Shown here in pieces: positions 3,115-52,419 of a stretch of 64,000 nt of DNA; positions within the stretch are counted from its first letter, which is position 1, and each line of letters begins with the position of its first letter. A program made the translations under genes and the position numbers. This stretch comes from an uncultured Solirubrobacterales bacterium (GTDB lineage: Bacteria; Actinomycetota; Thermoleophilia; Solirubrobacterales; JBBDJG01). Under the pieces are notes generated by a model. The model made no database searches and had not been told where the DNA came from. It was given only the letters and a program-made list of their open reading frames with translations. The DNA is taken from NCBI GenBank assembly GCA_963774075.1, contig CAVZDP010000001.1:108572-172571 (forward strand), read 5' to 3'.

Positions 3115-10733
<7,619 letters not shown>

Positions 10734-19160: not shown

Positions 19161-19481
19161 ATGGCAACACTCCCCCAAAATAAGATCCGCATCCGACTGA
19201 AGGCGTACGACCACGACGCGATCGATCGCGCCGCGGCCGAAATCGTCGAAACCGCCGAGCGCACTGGTGCCTCGGTGTCGGGTCCCGTGCCGCTGCCGAC
19301 TGAGAAGAACGTCTACGTCGTGATCCGCAGCCCGTTCAAGGACAAGGACTCACGCGAGCACTTCGAGATCCGCACGCACAAGCGGCTGATCGACATCCAC
19401 CAGGCGACGCCCAAGACCGTCGACTCGCTTCAGCGTCTCGACCACCTACCGGCGGGCGTCGACATCGAGATCCGGTTGTAG
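19161..19481 (+). CDS. rpsJ: 30S ribosomal protein S10
   Basis: 106 aa, ..[31 protein letters not shown].. Confidence 0.97.
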
Positions 19482-19506
19482 GCGTGACCTCCGAGATCGA
19501 GCATTA

Positions 19507-20133
19507 ATGGCGGGAATCATCGGACGAAAGCTCGGCATGACCCAGATCTTCACCGACGAGGGAGAGCGCATCGCGGTGACGGTGATCCAGGCCGGTCCCT
19601 GTCCGGTCACGGCGGTGCGCGACCCCGATCGCGACGGCTACCGCGCCATCCAGCTCGCCTACGGCGACACGCGCGAGAAGCTCCTATCGAAGCCGAAGCT
19701 CGGGCACCTGAAGAAGGCGGGCGCGCCGCCGCTTCGAAAGCTCGCTGAGTTTCGCGGCGAGGGCGGCGACGACACGAAGATTGGCGACTCGGTGACCGTG
19801 GGCGCCTTCGAGGCCGGTCAACGCATCAAGGTCACCGCTCGCTCTAAGGGCAAGGGGTTCCAGGGAACGATCCGCCGGCACCGCTTCCATCGCGGCCCGG
19901 TCAGCCACGGCTCGCACAACGTCCGCGCGCCCGGCTCGATCGGCGCCAGCGCGACGCCGTCCCGCGTGTTCAAGGGCATAAAGATGCCCGGCCAGATGGG
20001 CAACCGCCAAGTCACGCAACGCGGCCTCGAGCTCGTGGCGATCGACGGCGAGAAGAACCTGCTGCTGGTGAGGGGAGCCGTCCCGGGCCCGACCGGCGGC
20101 CTCGTCGAGGTGCGAAGCGAGGGCGCTCGATGA
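19507..20133 (+). CDS. rplC: 50S ribosomal protein L3
   Basis: 208 aa, MAGIIGRKLGMTQIF..GKGFQG..; operon order. Confidence 0.97.
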   Translation: MAGIIGRKLGMTQIFTDEGERIAVTVIQAGPCPVTAVRDPDRDGYRAIQLAYGDTREKLLSKPKLGHLKKAGAPPLRKLAEFRGEGGDDTKIGDSVTVGAFEAGQRIKVTARSKGKGFQGTIRRHRFHRGPVSHGSHNVRAPGSIGASATPSRVFKGIKMPGQMGNRQVTQRGLELVAIDGEKNLLLVRGAVPGPTGGLVEVRSEGAR

Positions 20134-22189: not shown

Positions 22190-22891
22190 ATGGCGGTGGA
22201 GCGCAAGAAGGACGACGAGCCAAAGACCGGCGGGCAGGCGGCCGGCTCGAAGGGCAAGGCCGGGGCCTCGGACCAGGCCGCGAAGGCCGAGGAGGGCGCA
22301 AAGGCCTCCAAGGCCTCGCCCAAGGCACGCCAGCCAAAGCCCGAGGCCAAGCAGGCTGGCGGCAAGGCGAAGTCCGAAGCCGCGACTCCCGCGCGCCCGC
22401 GAGCAGCACGCAAGCCTCGGGCGAGCGCCAAGAAAGCGCCCGCGACTGCCACGCAGCCATCAGGCGAGGGGGCCGAGCCGTCCAAGCGCGGAGCTCGTCC
22501 CCGCCGCCGCGCGACGCCCGCGGCCGAAACGCCACGGCGCGCTCCCGAGAGGCCGGTCGTGCGAGCGCAGGCCAAGTACGTCCGCTCCTCCGCGCGCAAG
22601 GCGAGGCTCGTAATCGAGCACATCCGCGGCAAGTCCGTCGTCGAGGCCCAAGCGGTGTTGCGCCACACGCCGCGTGCGGTTGCCCGCGACGTCGAGAAGC
22701 TGCTGAAGTCGGCGATCGCCAACGCCGAGAACAATCACGAGCTGGTGGGCGACGACCTCCGGGTCAAGGAGGTCTACGCAGACGAGGGCCCGACCTTGAA
22801 GCGCTTTCGCCCGCGCGCTCAGGGGCGCGCCACGCGCATCCGGAAGCGCACCAGCCATCTGACTGTAACCCTCACCCCGAAGGAGGACTAG
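22190..22891 (+). CDS. rplV: 50S ribosomal protein L22 with ~115-aa basic Ala/Lys/Pro-rich N-terminal extension
   Basis: ATG after AGGAGG. The C-terminal ~115 aa are canonical L22 (..[27 protein letters not shown]...P....V.KLL.SA.ANAE.N..). The N-terminus is [39 protein letters not shown]... Confidence 0.93.
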
Positions 22892-23053
22892 TGCCCCATC
22901 TCGGAGATCACACCCGTTCTGGCTCGCTGCAATCCTTCGCGGCTGCTGCGTCCTCGGTCGCTCAAATAGTGCATGACTATTCGGGCTCCCTGCGTCCTTG
23001 CCCCGCTCGGCTTTCGCGGCCAGAAGCGGGCGTGACCCCCGGGATGGGGCACT
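22890..23053 (+). repeat. 164-bp intergenic element with 26-bp imperfect terminal inverted repeats (MITE-like / long-range stem), family member A
   Basis: Left arm AGTGCCCCATCTCGGAGATCACACCC (22890-22915) matches the reverse complement of the right arm (23028-23053) at 22 of 26 positions. The internal core GCGTCCTCGGTCGC..hairpin..CGGGCTCCCTGCGTCCTTGCC is shared with 31668-31719. Confidence 0.65.
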
Positions 23054-23054
23054 G

Positions 23055-23786
23055 ATGGGCCAAAAGGTGCACCCCGAGGGACTTCGCGTCGGCTACATCC
23101 ATGACTGGAAGTCCAACTGGTTCAACGAGCGGGACTTCGCCGACTACCTGCACGAGGATCTCGAGATCCGCAAGCACATCGAGAACAAGCTCAGCCACGC
23201 CGGACTGTCCTCGATCACGATCCGCAAGGACAAGAACGAGGTGACGGTGGACATCCACACCGCTCGCCCGGGGATCGTGATCGGCAAGTCGGGCGCCGAA
23301 GTGGACGCGCTGCGCCGCGAGCTGCACAAGATGACCAGCAAGCAGGTGCGCGTGAACATCCTCGAGGTGAAGCGCCCGGAGCTCGACGCCAAGCTCGTCG
23401 CTCAGTCGATCGCCGAGCAGCTCCAGAACCGCGTCGCCTTCCGGCGCGCGATGAAGCGCGCGATCACGTCGGCGATGCGCTCCGGCGCGGTCGGCGTGAG
23501 GGTGCAGGTCTCCGGCCGGCTCGGCGGCTCGGAGATGGCCCGCACGGAGTTCTATTCCGAAGGGCGGGTCCCGCTGCACACGCTGCGTGCGGACATCGAC
23601 TACGGCCTGCACGAGGCGCGCACGACATTTGGGCGCATTGGCGTCAAGTGCTGGATCAACAAGGGCGAGGTCATGCCCGTCGGCTACGGGCGCCAAGACG
23701 GCGAGGCAGTTCCGCCGCCGCCACCACAGCGCCCACAGCGCCCGCAGGGCGACCGTGGCGGCCGCCGGGGGCAGAGGGGTAGGTAG
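23055..23786 (+). CDS. rpsC: 30S ribosomal protein S3 (Pro/Arg/Gly-rich C-terminal tail)
   Basis: ATG at 23055 gives [23 protein letters not shown]... The track start at 22998 lies inside the repeat element. Confidence 0.96.
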
Positions 23787-28294: not shown

Positions 28295-28900
28295 ATGGCA
28301 CGCAGAGATTCGATCAACCCGCAGGGTCTCGACCTCCAGGAGCGCGTGGTCACGATCAACCGTGTCGCCAAGGTCGTCAAGGGTGGGCGTCGCTTCTCGT
28401 TTACGGCGCTGGTCGTTGTCGGCGATGAGGATCGGCTCGTCGGAATCGGCTACGGCAAGGCGAACGAGGTTCCGCTCGCCATCCAGAAAGCTGTCGAGCG
28501 CGCCAAGAAGAGCCTGTTCCGCGCGCCGAAGCACGGGACGACGATCACGCATCAGGTCCTTGGCCGCTACGGCTCCGCCAAGGTGCTCCTCAAGCCCGCG
28601 TCCGAGGGTACCGGCGTCATCGCCGGAGGGCCCGTGCGCGCCGTGCTCGAGTTGGCGGGCATTCGCGACGTGCTCTCCAAGAGCCTCGGCAGCCAGAACC
28701 CGATCAACCTGGTGAAGGCGACGATGGCCGGGCTGCAGTCACTCAAGCGGCCCGAGCGCGTGGCGGAGCTACGAGGCAAGAGCATCTCGCACGTGCTGGG
28801 GATCGAGCGCGGCGAGGAGGCTGCGGAGGACACCGGCGAGGCGGAGGCGGCAGCCCCTGAGCCGCCGGAGCCTGCTCCGATCGGCGCACAGGAGGCCTAG
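28295..28900 (+). CDS. rpsE: 30S ribosomal protein S5 with acidic C-terminal tail
   Basis: 201 aa, ..[39 protein letters not shown].. Confidence 0.96.
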
Positions 28901-28932
28901 TGGCCCTTCCCGGAACCGAGAAGGACCACTAG
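28897..28932 (+). other. Stop/start junction hairpin (CTAGTGGCCC ... GGACCACTAG) between rpsE and rpmD
   Basis: Arms 28897-28906 and 28923-32 pair at 9 of 10 positions. The rpsE TAG (28898-28900) lies in the left arm. CGAGAAGGAC (28917-28926) spans the loop and right arm. The rpmD GTG lies 3 nt after the right arm. Confidence 0.6.
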
Positions 28933-28934
28933 CA

Positions 28935-29141
28935 GTGGCGGCCGAGAGCGTCCGCATCACCCAGCGAAAGAGCGCCAACGGGACGAACCCCGCCCAGCGC
29001 GAGACCCTTCGCTCGCTCGGCCTCGGCCGCATCGGCCGCACGGTCGAGCGCCCGGACAGTCCCCAGCTTCGGGGAATGATCCGCGTGGTCGAGCATCTGG
29101 TGGACGTCGATGCGAACTCCGCCGGAGGCAAGCGTGGCTGA
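28935..29141 (+). CDS. rpmD: 50S ribosomal protein L30
   Basis: GTG start, 68 aa, ..VRITQRKS.....P.QR.TLRSLGL.RIG..V......P...GMI..V.HLV. Confidence 0.92.
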   Translation: MAAESVRITQRKSANGTNPAQRETLRSLGLGRIGRTVERPDSPQLRGMIRVVEHLVDVDANSAGGKRG

Positions 29142-30937: not shown

Positions 30938-31612
30938 ATGCCGGAGTTGAATCTCGTCCTGCTCGGCCCGCCAGGCGCAGGCAAGGGCACTCAGGCGAGG
31001 CGCCTCGTGGACGACTTCGGCCTGCCCTATATCGCGACCGGGGACATGCTGCGGGAAGAGGTGCGCCAGGAGACCGAGCTCGGCGGCAAGGCAAAGGCGT
31101 ACATGGAGCGGGGCGACCTCGTCCCCGACGATCTCATCATCGAGATGATCATGCGGCGGCTCGCGCAGCCGGACACGGCGAACGGCTTCATCCTGGACGG
31201 GTTTCCGCGCACTCAGGGACAGGCCGAGGCGCTGGACGAGGCGCTCGAGAGGTTGGGCCGCTCACTGACGGCGGCCGTGCTCGTCGACGTGAGCGACGAC
31301 GAGGTCACGCGCCGCCTCTCCGGGCGCCGCGTGTGCGTAAAGAACCAGCACAACTTCCACGTCGACTTCGACCCTCCCAAGCGACGTGACCGCTGCGACC
31401 TGGACGGCAGCCGGCTGGTCATCCGCGACGACGACCGCCCGGAGCTCGTACGGCACCGGCTCGAGGAGTACCACGCCAAGACCGAGCCTCTGATCGGGTA
31501 CTACGAGGACCGCAGCATCCTGCGCCGCATCGACGGCACGCGCCCCGCGAGCGAGGTGAGCGACCAGGTCCGCGCCACCCTCGCCGCGGCCCGCCTGGAG
31601 GGACAGGTCTAG
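30938..31612 (+). CDS. adk: Adenylate kinase
   Basis: ATG at 30938; MPELNLVLLGPPGAGKGTQA..L......IATGDMLR..; ..ILDGFPRT..QAEAL. Confidence 0.96.
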   Translation: MPELNLVLLGPPGAGKGTQARRLVDDFGLPYIATGDMLREEVRQETELGGKAKAYMERGDLVPDDLIIEMIMRRLAQPDTANGFILDGFPRTQGQAEALDEALERLGRSLTAAVLVDVSDDEVTRRLSGRRVCVKNQHNFHVDFDPPKRRDRCDLDGSRLVIRDDDRPELVRHRLEEYHAKTEPLIGYYEDRSILRRIDGTRPASEVSDQVRATLAAARLEGQV

Positions 31613-31774
31613 TGGCCTGTCCCATGACGTTCGACCTGAAATGGCGGCTTCGGAGCGCCGCCATGCGGCGTCCTCGGTCGCCCGATAGCGCTGCTATCGG
31701 GGCTCCCTGCGTCCTTGCCTGGCGCCGTCCGAACTTCGCCATTTCCTGGCCAACGTTACGAGACAGACCACTAG
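31609..31774 (+). repeat. 166-bp intergenic element with 21-bp imperfect terminal inverted repeats (MITE-like / long-range stem), family member B
   Basis: CTAGTGGCCTGTCCCATGACG (31609-31629) matches the reverse complement of 31754-31774 at 17 of 21 positions. It contains the core GCGTCCTCGGTCGC, a 9-bp hairpin (CCCGATAGC gct GCTATCGGG), and GGCTCCCTGCGTCCTTGCC. Confidence 0.65.
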
Positions 31775-31805
31775 TGGTCCACCCGTTTTGCGAGAAGGAC
31801 CGTCA

Positions 31806-32579
31806 GTGATCATCCGCAAGACGCCGGAGGAGATCGAGGCGATCGCCGCCGCCGGCGAGGTCGTCGCGCGCTGCCTCACGATGCTGAGTGCGAGCGCCCG
31901 CGCCGGCGCCACGACAGCGGAGCTCGACCGCGCCGCCGAGAAGTTCATCCGCAGCCAGGGGGGCGAGCCGGCGTTCAAGGGCTATCGCGGCTTTCCGGCC
32001 TCGATCTGTACCTCGCCCAACTCGATGGTTGTGCACGGCATCCCGGGGCCCTACACGCTCGAACGTGGAGACATCCTCTCGGTCGACGTCGGCGTGGAGC
32101 TCGACGGCTGGATCGCCGACGCGGCCCTCACGGTGGCCGTGCGCCCCCTCAGCCCCGTGGCGACCAAGCTGCTGCGGGCCACCCGCCAGGCGCTGGAGGC
32201 CGGCGTCGAGCACTGCCGCCCGGGACAGCGGCTCGGCGATGTCTCGAGCGCCGTACAGGAGCGCGTGGAGCAGGACGGCTTTTCGGTCATCCGCTCGCTC
32301 GTCGGCCACGGCATCGGGCGCCAGATGCACGAAGACCCCCAGATCCCCAATTTCGGGGAGCCCGGCAAGGGCCCCCTGATCGAGGAGGGGATGGTCTTCT
32401 GCATCGAGCCGATGGTCTGCGTCGGCGGCCACAGCGTCCGGATGGGCGATGACAACTGGGCTATCTACTCAGAGGACGGCTCTCTGACGGCCCATTTCGA
32501 GCACACCGTGGCGGTCACCGCGGACGGCCCCCGAGTGCTCACCCCATGGCACCTGAAGGCCGAGAAGGCCGCCGCCTGA
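31806..32579 (+). CDS. map: Methionine aminopeptidase type I
   Basis: GTG at 31806, 5 nt after CGAGAAGGAC, gives (M)IIRKTPEEIEAIAAAGEVVA..; ..VHGIPG...L..GDI...D.G....G...D.A.T; ..HGIG...HE.P. Confidence 0.95.
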   Translation: MIIRKTPEEIEAIAAAGEVVARCLTMLSASARAGATTAELDRAAEKFIRSQGGEPAFKGYRGFPASICTSPNSMVVHGIPGPYTLERGDILSVDVGVELDGWIADAALTVAVRPLSPVATKLLRATRQALEAGVEHCRPGQRLGDVSSAVQERVEQDGFSVIRSLVGHGIGRQMHEDPQIPNFGEPGKGPLIEEGMVFCIEPMVCVGGHSVRMGDDNWAIYSEDGSLTAHFEHTVAVTADGPRVLTPWHLKAEKAAA

Positions 32580-51816: not shown

Positions 51817-52419
51817 ATGGCATACACGGTTCCCGACCTGCCCTACGCGTACGACGCGCTCGAGCCTCACATCGACGACGCAACGATGCGCCTACACCAC
51901 GACAAGCACCACCAGGCCTACGTGGACAAGGCGAATGCGGCGCTGGAGGGAACCGAGTGGGTGGACAAGCCGGTGGAGGACGTGCTGCGCAATCTCGACA
52001 AGCTCGGCGACAAGGCGACGGCAGTGCGGAACAACGGCGGGGGCCACTACAACCACTCGCTGTTCTGGGAGTGGATGAGCCCCGACGGCGGCGGTGAGCC
52101 CGATGGCGACCTCGCGGCCGCGATCGAGTCGGCCTTCGGGTCGTTCTCGAGCTTCCAGGAGGAGCTCAAGACCGCGGGAATCAACCGCTTCGGCTCTGGC
52201 TGGTCGTGGCTCGTCCACGACGGCAGCGGGCTCGCGGTCGTGTCGTCGGCGAACCAGGACAACCCGATCTCCGACGGCCAGACGCCGCTGCTCGGCGTCG
52301 ACGTCTGGGAGCACGCCTACTACCTCAAGTACCAGAACCGGCGCCCGGACTACATCGACGCCTGGTGGAACGTCGTCAACTGGCCCAAGGTCGCCGAGCG
52401 CTTCTCGGCCGCCTCGTAG
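51817..52419 (+). CDS. sodA: Fe/Mn superoxide dismutase
   Basis: 200 aa; ..[24 protein letters not shown]; ..[17 protein letters not shown].. Confidence 0.96.

Follow-up and report, generated by a model that had tools for sequence, protein, structure and literature searches.

We analysed a 64,000-nt stretch of DNA from an uncultured Solirubrobacterales bacterium (contig CAVZDP010000001.1, positions 108,572 to 172,571; hereafter 'the window'), which has a G+C content of 67.6% and carries the S10/spc/alpha ribosomal-protein cluster on its + strand. Our subject is the junction between two genes of this cluster, rplV and rpsC, where an imperfect palindrome fills the exact gap between the rplV TAG and the rpsC ATG. 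The insert had been picked out in an earlier reading of the sequence alone (the 'sequence-only reading') as a unit of 164 nt; the insert itself is real, and the unit that suits the whole family described below is the 162-nt segment 22891-23052, running from GTG to CAC, with TA on its left and TG on its right. The features of the locus are as follows:

22190-22891, + strand: rplV, encoding a product of 233 aa
22889-22891, + strand: TAG stop codon of rplV; the TA in it is the putative target dinucleotide, and the element begins with the G
22891-23052, + strand: element copy 1, 162 nt, subfamily A (GTGCCCC...GGGGCAC), flanked by TA (left) and TG (right)
22890-22916, + strand: left arm, terminal inverted repeat of 27 nt
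22948-23001, + strand: conserved core of copy 1, GCGTCCTCGGTCGC-hairpin-GGGCTCCCTGCGTCCTTGC
22965-22981, + strand: central covarying hairpin, AATAGT / ACTATT
23027-23053, + strand: right arm, terminal inverted repeat of 27 nt, holding the purine-rich GGGAUGGGG just 5' of the rpsC start
22891-23055, + strand: 54-codon relay open reading frame (ORF), which overlaps the rplV TAG with its GTG (TAGTG) and the rpsC ATG with its TGA (TGATG)
23055-23786, + strand: rpsC, with ATG at 23055 (MGQKVHPEG...)

The two 27-nt arms are 85% complementary, in good agreement with the 22 matches over 26-nt arms counted earlier. The + strand RNA of copy 1 folds computationally into a single long hairpin of -89.5 kcal/mol (z = -4.1), and none of 200 shuffled sequences was as stable. 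The GTG of the relay frame (22891) is placed 4 nt past AAGGAGGA, and the frame is stop-free up to the TGA at 23053-23055. Upstream of the rpsC ATG the only possible Shine-Dalgarno (SD) sequence is GGGAUGGGG, and the earlier remark that no convincing SD precedes this gene was a fair one. An intrinsic terminator or promoter role of copy 1 was rejected, as neither was detected inside the insert. Rfam 15 gave no match for the whole window at gathering score and solely chance-level microRNA and small nucleolar RNA matches for 22800-23150 at E ≤ 10; an exact-protein look-up of S3, the rpsC product, returned no record. The minus strand of copy 1 (22888-23052) holds a second 54-codon open frame, which starts with a GTG at the opposite terminus and extends to the complement of the CTA on the rplV side; over the family, this reverse-strand frame is open in just 11 of 17 copies.

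The rplV-rpsC insert is absent from locus L001 and from 80 of 80 metagenomic relatives (S3 77-91% identical). At the same junction the closest relatives read CTAGTGGG (L123, L124 and L126) or, in the case of L127, GAGAGCTAGTGGGCCAGAAAG, with a TAGTG stop/start overlap and GTG as the rpsC start codon; in a relative with an identical L16 protein, found by protein look-up, the gap is just TGAGGCAAGCATG. An empty site of this kind, TAGTG with a start reading GTG GGC CAx AAG, had been reconstructed from the filled site alone, and it is what the closest relatives carry. The relatives' empty site contains a single TA; since TA is self-complementary, a TA flank is inseparable from the terminal inverted repeat unless an exact empty site is at hand. 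L127, the nearest relative at ~81% nucleotide identity, is also empty at two further junctions that are occupied in the window: its adk and map genes overlap directly (TTGA), and its rpsE-rpmD junction reads GAGTAGGAGCATGG.

We scanned one genome per GTDB species for the exact core pattern CCTCGGTCGC-N12-26-GGCTCCCTGCGTCC and found it in at least 118 genomic stretches, every match lying centrally within a palindrome of ~160-170 nt. Record titles that name a lineage below phylum or class all belong to Thermoleophilia (Gaiellales, Solirubrobacterales or Thermoleophilaceae), and the remaining titles are those of generic Actinomycetota, Actinomycetes or Actinobacteria metagenome-assembled genomes. 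Subfamily A, to which copy 1 belongs, has the termini TA-GTGCCCC...GGGGCAC-TA and TA-GTGGTC...GACCAC-TA (hyphens mark the ends of the element); further terminal types are TA-GGAGGGCTTGGCGAAAC... and TA-GAACTCGTTTCAGAATGA..., and shorter forms of ~100 nt also occur. Of 122 matches, 72 have a TA directly at the left end of the palindrome; TA makes up ~1.2% of all dinucleotides in the window. For measurements we used the 68 copies of 155-170 nt with a left TA (loci L004-L119 and the window; 22 of subfamily A and 46 others), in which the right flank is TA in 29 cases and TG in 10. The target proposed in the sequence-only reading was CTAG; TA fits better, since several copies lack the C or the G. 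Copies occur singly with the exception of one tandem pair: on the minus strand of L107, upstream of fmt, two subfamily-A copies (5692-5853 and 5857-6015) lie 3 nt apart in direct orientation. The element has no match among PLSDB plasmids, and literature searches on such repeats in Thermoleophilia, Conexibacter, Solirubrobacter or Gaiella yielded no description. We take these small, mobile-looking palindromes as a family not described before and, as far as sampled, confined to Thermoleophilia.

The best conserved part of the element is its core, in RNA form GCGUCCUC-GGUCGC-hairpin-GGCUCCCU-GCGUCCUUGC, the termini varying by subfamily. This conservation is partly built in, as copies were selected on the core; an almost identical core is present in 8 extra copies found by profile in the flanks and in 11 profile matches in unrelated loci. 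The core shared by copy 1 and the insert between adk and map (22944-23002 vs 31664-31719), spotted already in the sequence-only reading, is 85% identical over 59 nt (E = 2e-10), and the compensatory difference reported between the hairpins of the two copies is real. Over 59 copies, pairing in the central hairpin amounts to 95.7%; both sides are changed in 105 cells, as compared to 34 ± 5.6 upon shuffling (0 of 500 shuffles reach this value), and with the 3' partners slid, pairing is at most 45%.

By its anatomy the insert resembles a MITE (miniature inverted-repeat transposable element): it is small (162 nt), has no transposase coding and contains a single, non-conserved ORF of 54 codons; terminal inverted repeats are found in copy 1 and family-wide; and the copies are many and dispersed, present or absent at orthologous sites, with two full copies and one remnant in the window alone. 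The MITE-like interpretation put forward earlier is thus upheld by the many copies across genomes, their TA flanks and their presence or absence at orthologous junctions.

The relay frame is a regular property of subfamily A. The length is 162 nt in 15 of its 22 copies (17 if two GCG-starting variants are counted), and it is a multiple of three in 17 of 22 subfamily-A copies vs 17 of 46 copies of the other subfamilies. Across the 17 copies of 162 nt the frame of the terminal GTG contains no stop codon, while the other five frames contain 11, 6, 8, 16 and 12. From the left terminus it is 60, 61 or 62 nt to the core, depending on the sub-lineage, and the right side measures 57, 56 or 55 nt, respectively, the total being held at 162 nt; across copies, all three frames are therefore used to read the core, which rules out a conserved peptide.

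In a mechanical test, a copy was scored as bridged when a start codon overlaps the upstream stop, an ORF spans the element and a stop codon overlaps the downstream start. By this test, 28 of 75 forward copies with an upstream gene are bridged as compared to 6 of 57 reverse copies (Fisher p = 5e-4), the reverse cases being loose ones. Typical bridges have the form TAGTG / 54 codons / TGATG or TAGTG, or (A/G/T)TGA / 55-56 codons / ATGA or GTGA. As judged by eye from the translated flanks, bridged copies are independent insertions at classically coupled gene pairs: rplM-rpsI, rplW-rplB, carA-carB, gcvT-gcvH, pntA-pntB and two ABC permeases. Of 22 copies, 13 have an SD-core motif no more than 16 nt upstream of the GTG that opens the element; in the right arm, the final 4-17 nt contain such a motif in 11 of the 22, as compared to 3 of 22 for the left arm. 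When a gene reads into the element, subfamily A is oriented forward in 16 cases and reverse in 4 (p = 0.012), and the GGAGGG subfamily forward in 12 and reverse in 11.

Ribosomal-protein loci of relatives, 584 kb in all, gave 11 profile matches, all 11 of them on the gene strand (two-sided binomial p ~0.001); these correspond to 10 distinct elements, as the two matches in L152 may be fragments of one copy. Copies located between two ribosomal-protein genes are bridged in 8 out of 8 cases:

L121, rplW-rplB: 54 codons, TGATG; the element closely resembles copy 1 of the window
L143, rpsJ-rplC: 54 codons, TGATG
L148, rpsS-rplV: ATGA, 43 codons, ATGA
L128 and L140, rplB-rpsS: ATGA, 47 and 43 codons, respectively, ATGA
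L178 and L188, rplF-rplR: ATGA, 45 and 44 codons, respectively, ATGA
L176, rplW-rplB: 36 codons, the GTG lying 5 nt past the first base of the TAG stop

Indels separate the members of two orthologous pairs, namely +7, +1, -22 and +2 in one (net -12) and -1 and -2 in the other (net -3), with ATGA kept at both ends; net changes in multiples of three indicate that frame-breaking indels were compensated. The short ~100-nt forms share the core variant GCGTCCTCAGTCGCTCGCGTGC..GCACGCCACGCTCCCTGCGTCCTTG (L128, L140, L148, L164, L176, L178, L188 and L152, and also L007, L020 and L094). Their termini are often TGAG...CTCA instead of TA: the upstream TGA stop then lies within the left terminus, and the relay frame is begun by the ATGA overlap.

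Taken together, the length in multiples of three, the stop-free frame, the compensated indels and the orientation bias indicate that the frame is maintained, none of which is predicted by a model that relies on the helix alone. The sequence-only reading had offered such a model, with a closing helix that preserves the coupling of rpsC to rplV: the stable stem it invoked is there, and what it missed is the maintained 54-codon frame that overlaps both the stop and the start codon. In our view the insert is probably a MITE-like palindrome, non-autonomous and carrying its own translational relay from rplV to rpsC, and elements of this kind appear to be tolerated in the stop/start overlaps of operons thanks to the stop-free relay frame.

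What we observe directly is the anatomy of the element, its family, its presence or absence in relatives and the statistical marks of both a maintained frame and a constrained orientation. The mechanism that we propose beyond these observations would run as follows. The element would integrate at the TA of an overlapping rplV-stop/rpsC-start junction, presumably with duplication of the TA, and its leading G together with the TA would rebuild the TAG stop codon for rplV. The element's own GTG would thereby take over the original TAGTG overlap along with the old SD, AAGGAGGA. Ribosomes ending rplV could then re-initiate on the element, unwind the hairpin, translate the 54 codons, terminate at the TGA on the rpsC start and re-initiate there, such that the translational coupling of the operon would survive a 162-nt insertion. 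The closing stem would at the same time mask the rpsC start region until a ribosome arrives; unmasking and relay probably act together.

Several observations weigh against this interpretation. The right flank of copy 1 is TG and not TA, the junction being CAC-TGATG. Deriving TGATG from the TAGTG of the relatives takes two substitutions, and deriving it from TAATG, a common native junction, takes one; the exact target, the duplication and the ancestral junction state of copy 1 are uncertain. The TA flanks expected of an IS630/Tc1-mariner-type element are seen, and a search of the ~1.5 Mb of fetched loci for an autonomous parent, sought as a TA-flanked pair of terminal inverted repeats 600-3000 nt apart, found none, be it the IS5-like one suggested earlier or another. 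Copy 2 in the window (160 nt, see below) gets to the map start only via 35 extra nt, and the other subfamilies (GGAGGG..., GAACTCG...) show neither the 3n length nor the orientation bias. At ~68% G+C a 54-codon open frame arises by chance with a probability of ~0.3 per frame. Moreover, the copies share ancestry, and counts such as 17 of 17, not being independent events, overstate independence; the open frame could in part be inherited from a master copy. The gene calls in the fetched loci come from our own heuristic based on GC3 (G+C at third codon positions). Finally, the relay model accounts neither for the conserved core nor for a marked strand asymmetry, to which we return below.

The alternative that survives best, though we regard it as unlikely, is that of a selfish palindrome under no selection for translation, with the open frame a by-product of the G+C content and coupling, if kept at all, achieved only by classical unmasking, in which a ribosome that terminates at the rplV TAG would melt the stem and so free the rpsC start, as in the helix idea of the sequence-only reading. 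The stable closing stem does put TAG and ATG at its foot, a preference for TA would by itself explain the location at stop codons (in a high-G+C genome a TA is often part of one), open frames are common at this G+C, and the other subfamilies are not frame-constrained. What this explanation does not predict is a length of 162 nt, a multiple of three, across sub-lineages that differ in arm length, the absence of stops from one frame as compared to 6-16 in the others, or stops that overlap downstream starts predominantly in forward copies (28 of 75 vs 6 of 57); net-3n compensating indels in orthologues are likewise left unexplained.

The strand asymmetry mentioned above is uniform. Forward-strand RNA is less stable than its complement in 68 of 68 copies, by ~20 kcal/mol (about -88 to -90 vs about -109 to -112 kcal/mol); reverse-strand folds contain 412 G.U pairs, which are A.C mismatches on the forward strand, vs 180 G.U pairs in forward-strand folds; and the forward GC skew is -0.12 and negative in all 68 copies. 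It is compatible with selection that keeps the structure of the translated strand weak, or else with a stage in which the other strand is used single-stranded. The latter possibility defines a second alternative, which we judge improbable: mobilisation as a single strand (single-stranded DNA or RNA of reverse polarity), with the core as the recognition module, and not by a TA-duplicating DDE transposase, the orientation in operons reflecting the strand that folds. Besides the asymmetry itself, a conserved core combined with termini that vary by subfamily, contrary to an ordinary MITE, speaks for it, as does the missing TIR (terminal inverted repeat)-flanked parent in the ~1.5 Mb of loci. TA on both flanks and long terminal inverted repeats are, however, typical of cut-and-paste elements, no HUH or other enzyme is linked to the family, and the asymmetry could have arisen if the translated strand is selected to be weakly structured and poor in stops.

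The same asymmetry bears on a third alternative, that of a non-mobile, structured cis-regulatory RNA on the operon mRNA, in which the core would be functional (for example, a protein-binding or processing site) and the arms would serve as the closing helix. The highly conserved core with its covarying hairpin and the strong orientation bias inside operons would suit such an RNA. Its dispersal over unrelated loci, its presence or absence in relatives and its TA flanks would not, nor would the lack of an Rfam match even at E ≤ 10; moreover, it is the transcribed strand that folds ~20 kcal/mol worse in 68 of 68 copies, with the G.U pairs on the non-transcribed strand, contrary to what selection for folding of the mRNA strand would lead one to expect. 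A structured RNA had been the second option of the sequence-only reading, and in this non-mobile form we disfavour it as quite improbable. A functional small protein of 54 residues, encoded between rplV and rpsC, is hardly credible: the ORF does have a start, an upstream SD and a coupled stop, but the frame of the core differs among copies, including the two in the window, leaving no conserved peptide (for which reason a conserved micro-protein was rejected), and ORF length varies from 36 to 65 codons among the forms.

Among known systems, the favoured interpretation of a MITE-like element with a translational relay has its closest counterpart in the MIRUs (mycobacterial interspersed repetitive units), whose ORFs overlap the flanking stop and start codons (Supply et al. 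1997, summarised in PMC12548453 and PMC3184786). Like the present element, MIRUs are intergenic repeats of actinobacterial polycistronic operons with filled and empty sites, and both carry a small ORF oriented with the genes, the ends of which overlap the flanking stop and start (-4 nt, ATGA type); in MIRUs the overlapping ORF has been interpreted as permitting insertion with minimal effect on expression (PMC12548453, PMC3184786). Copy 1 has this coupled-repeat architecture, with co-directional operon genes and TAGTG / 54 codons / TGATG. MIRUs are, however, mycobacterial, 40-100 bp long and often arranged in tandem arrays of variable number, whereas the Thermoleophilia elements are single hairpins of ~162 nt (or ~100 nt) with TA flanks, a conserved core whose hairpin covaries and several terminal subfamilies. 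In our best reading the element may be functionally like a MIRU. The reverse complement of the short-form core, GGACGCA(A/G)GGAGCGAAG, weakly resembles an M. intracellulare repeat primer, CGACGATGCAGAGCGAAGCGATG, over ~13-15 nt (PMC10117815, Table 1); such a likeness may be fortuitous in G+C-rich DNA or point to remote kinship of the MIRU type, and we mention it as a lead only.

Other palindromic repeats are less similar in organisation. Correia elements (NEMIS) of Neisseria and RUP of pneumococcus are, like the Thermoleophilia element, small non-autonomous palindromes flanked by TA, often co-transcribed with their neighbours and devoid of a transposase of their own. Correia and RUP elements duplicate TA on insertion. 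In Correia elements the 26-bp terminal inverted repeats are conserved and the interior, which holds promoters and an IHF site, is variable, whereas in the Thermoleophilia element it is the interior core that is conserved, the termini vary and a relay ORF is carried. Processing by RNase III, as well as the IHF site, has been described for Correia elements (PMC10969869). Rickettsia palindromic elements (RPEs) are palindromes of ~150 bp, insertions of which keep the reading frame open (PMC10969869); RPEs insert within genes, where the host protein gains a conserved peptide, while the Thermoleophilia element is intergenic and has a separate coupled ORF with no conserved peptide. ERIC and REP of enterobacteria, too, are imperfectly palindromic and lie in intercistronic regions that are transcribed, where their effects on mRNA depend on orientation (PMC10969869), but they act on mRNA stability, translation has not been reported for them, and both their sequences and their host clades are different.

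If the proposed relay is real, a mobile element is able to become translationally transparent, with a stop/start overlap restored at either end and its hairpin crossed by an open frame, and to settle in the most constrained intercistronic junctions, such as rplV-rpsC, rplM-rpsI, rplB-rpsS and carA-carB; the single mycobacterial precedent (MIRU) would be extended to an element of different structure from a deep class of actinobacteria, and a natural test bed would be available for termination-reinitiation across a long, stable RNA structure. On a more tentative note, and as a possibility that we would not yet lean on, the class may harbour mobile palindromes adapted to coupled stop/start overlaps, with junction-mimicking termini (TA-GTG...CAC-TA or ATGA...) and a length-constrained relay frame, which repeatedly colonise essential ribosomal-protein operons; the core would be the recognition module of a possibly single-strand-specific mobilisation, and the elements might anciently be related to MIRUs. 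For annotation, the practical consequence is that gene callers will mis-set downstream starts or call spurious small ORFs at these sites. The core, which has neither an Rfam nor a plasmid match, is a candidate new protein- or enzyme-recognition motif.

The remaining copies of the window are located downstream of rpsC in the same cluster:

28900-28929, + strand: mini-palindrome of 30 nt at rpsE-rpmD, consisting of the two subfamily-A termini only, with 10 in-frame codons
31612-31771, + strand: element copy 2 at adk-map, 160 nt, CTA-GTGGCC...GACCAC-TAG
31612-31809, + strand: relay ORF of copy 2, 65 codons; its GTG overlaps the adk TAG (31610-31612) and its TGA overlaps the map GTG at 31806 (GTGA)

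The rpsE-rpmD junction (28898-28932) reads CTA-GTGGCCCTTCCCGGAACCGAGAAGGACCAC-TAG. The rpsE TAG overlaps the GTG of the mini-palindrome, whose own TAG (28930-28932) is followed by the rpmD GTG at 28935, with GAGAAGGA as the SD. It looks like a third copy that is internally deleted; in this lineage three junctions of the ribosomal gene cluster are struck, namely rplV-rpsC, adk-map and rpsE-rpmD. A profile built from 68 elements detected no additional full copy in the window, and a search for solitary termini beyond the known copies turned up the rpsE-rpmD remnant alone. Two further candidates were rejected: the rpsJ-rplC spacer (19481-19509), which bears a weak blastn likeness to the arms and is not an element, and a TA-flanked palindrome at 51825-51957, which is spurious and lies within a superoxide dismutase gene.

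Copy 2 is itself palindromic, with 58-nt arms that are 71% complementary. The 35-nt spacer between it and map (31772-31809), TAGTGGTCCACCCGTTTTGCGAGAAGGACCGTCAGTGA, looks like a further terminal remnant (GTGGTCC...GAGAAGGACC), and given this remnant-like spacer the adk-map junction may have been hit twice. As to the gene upstream of copy 1, the rplV product has a ~120-residue N-terminal extension rich in Lys, Ala and Pro (window 22190-22560); the L22 protein of the relative L001 is 181 aa long.

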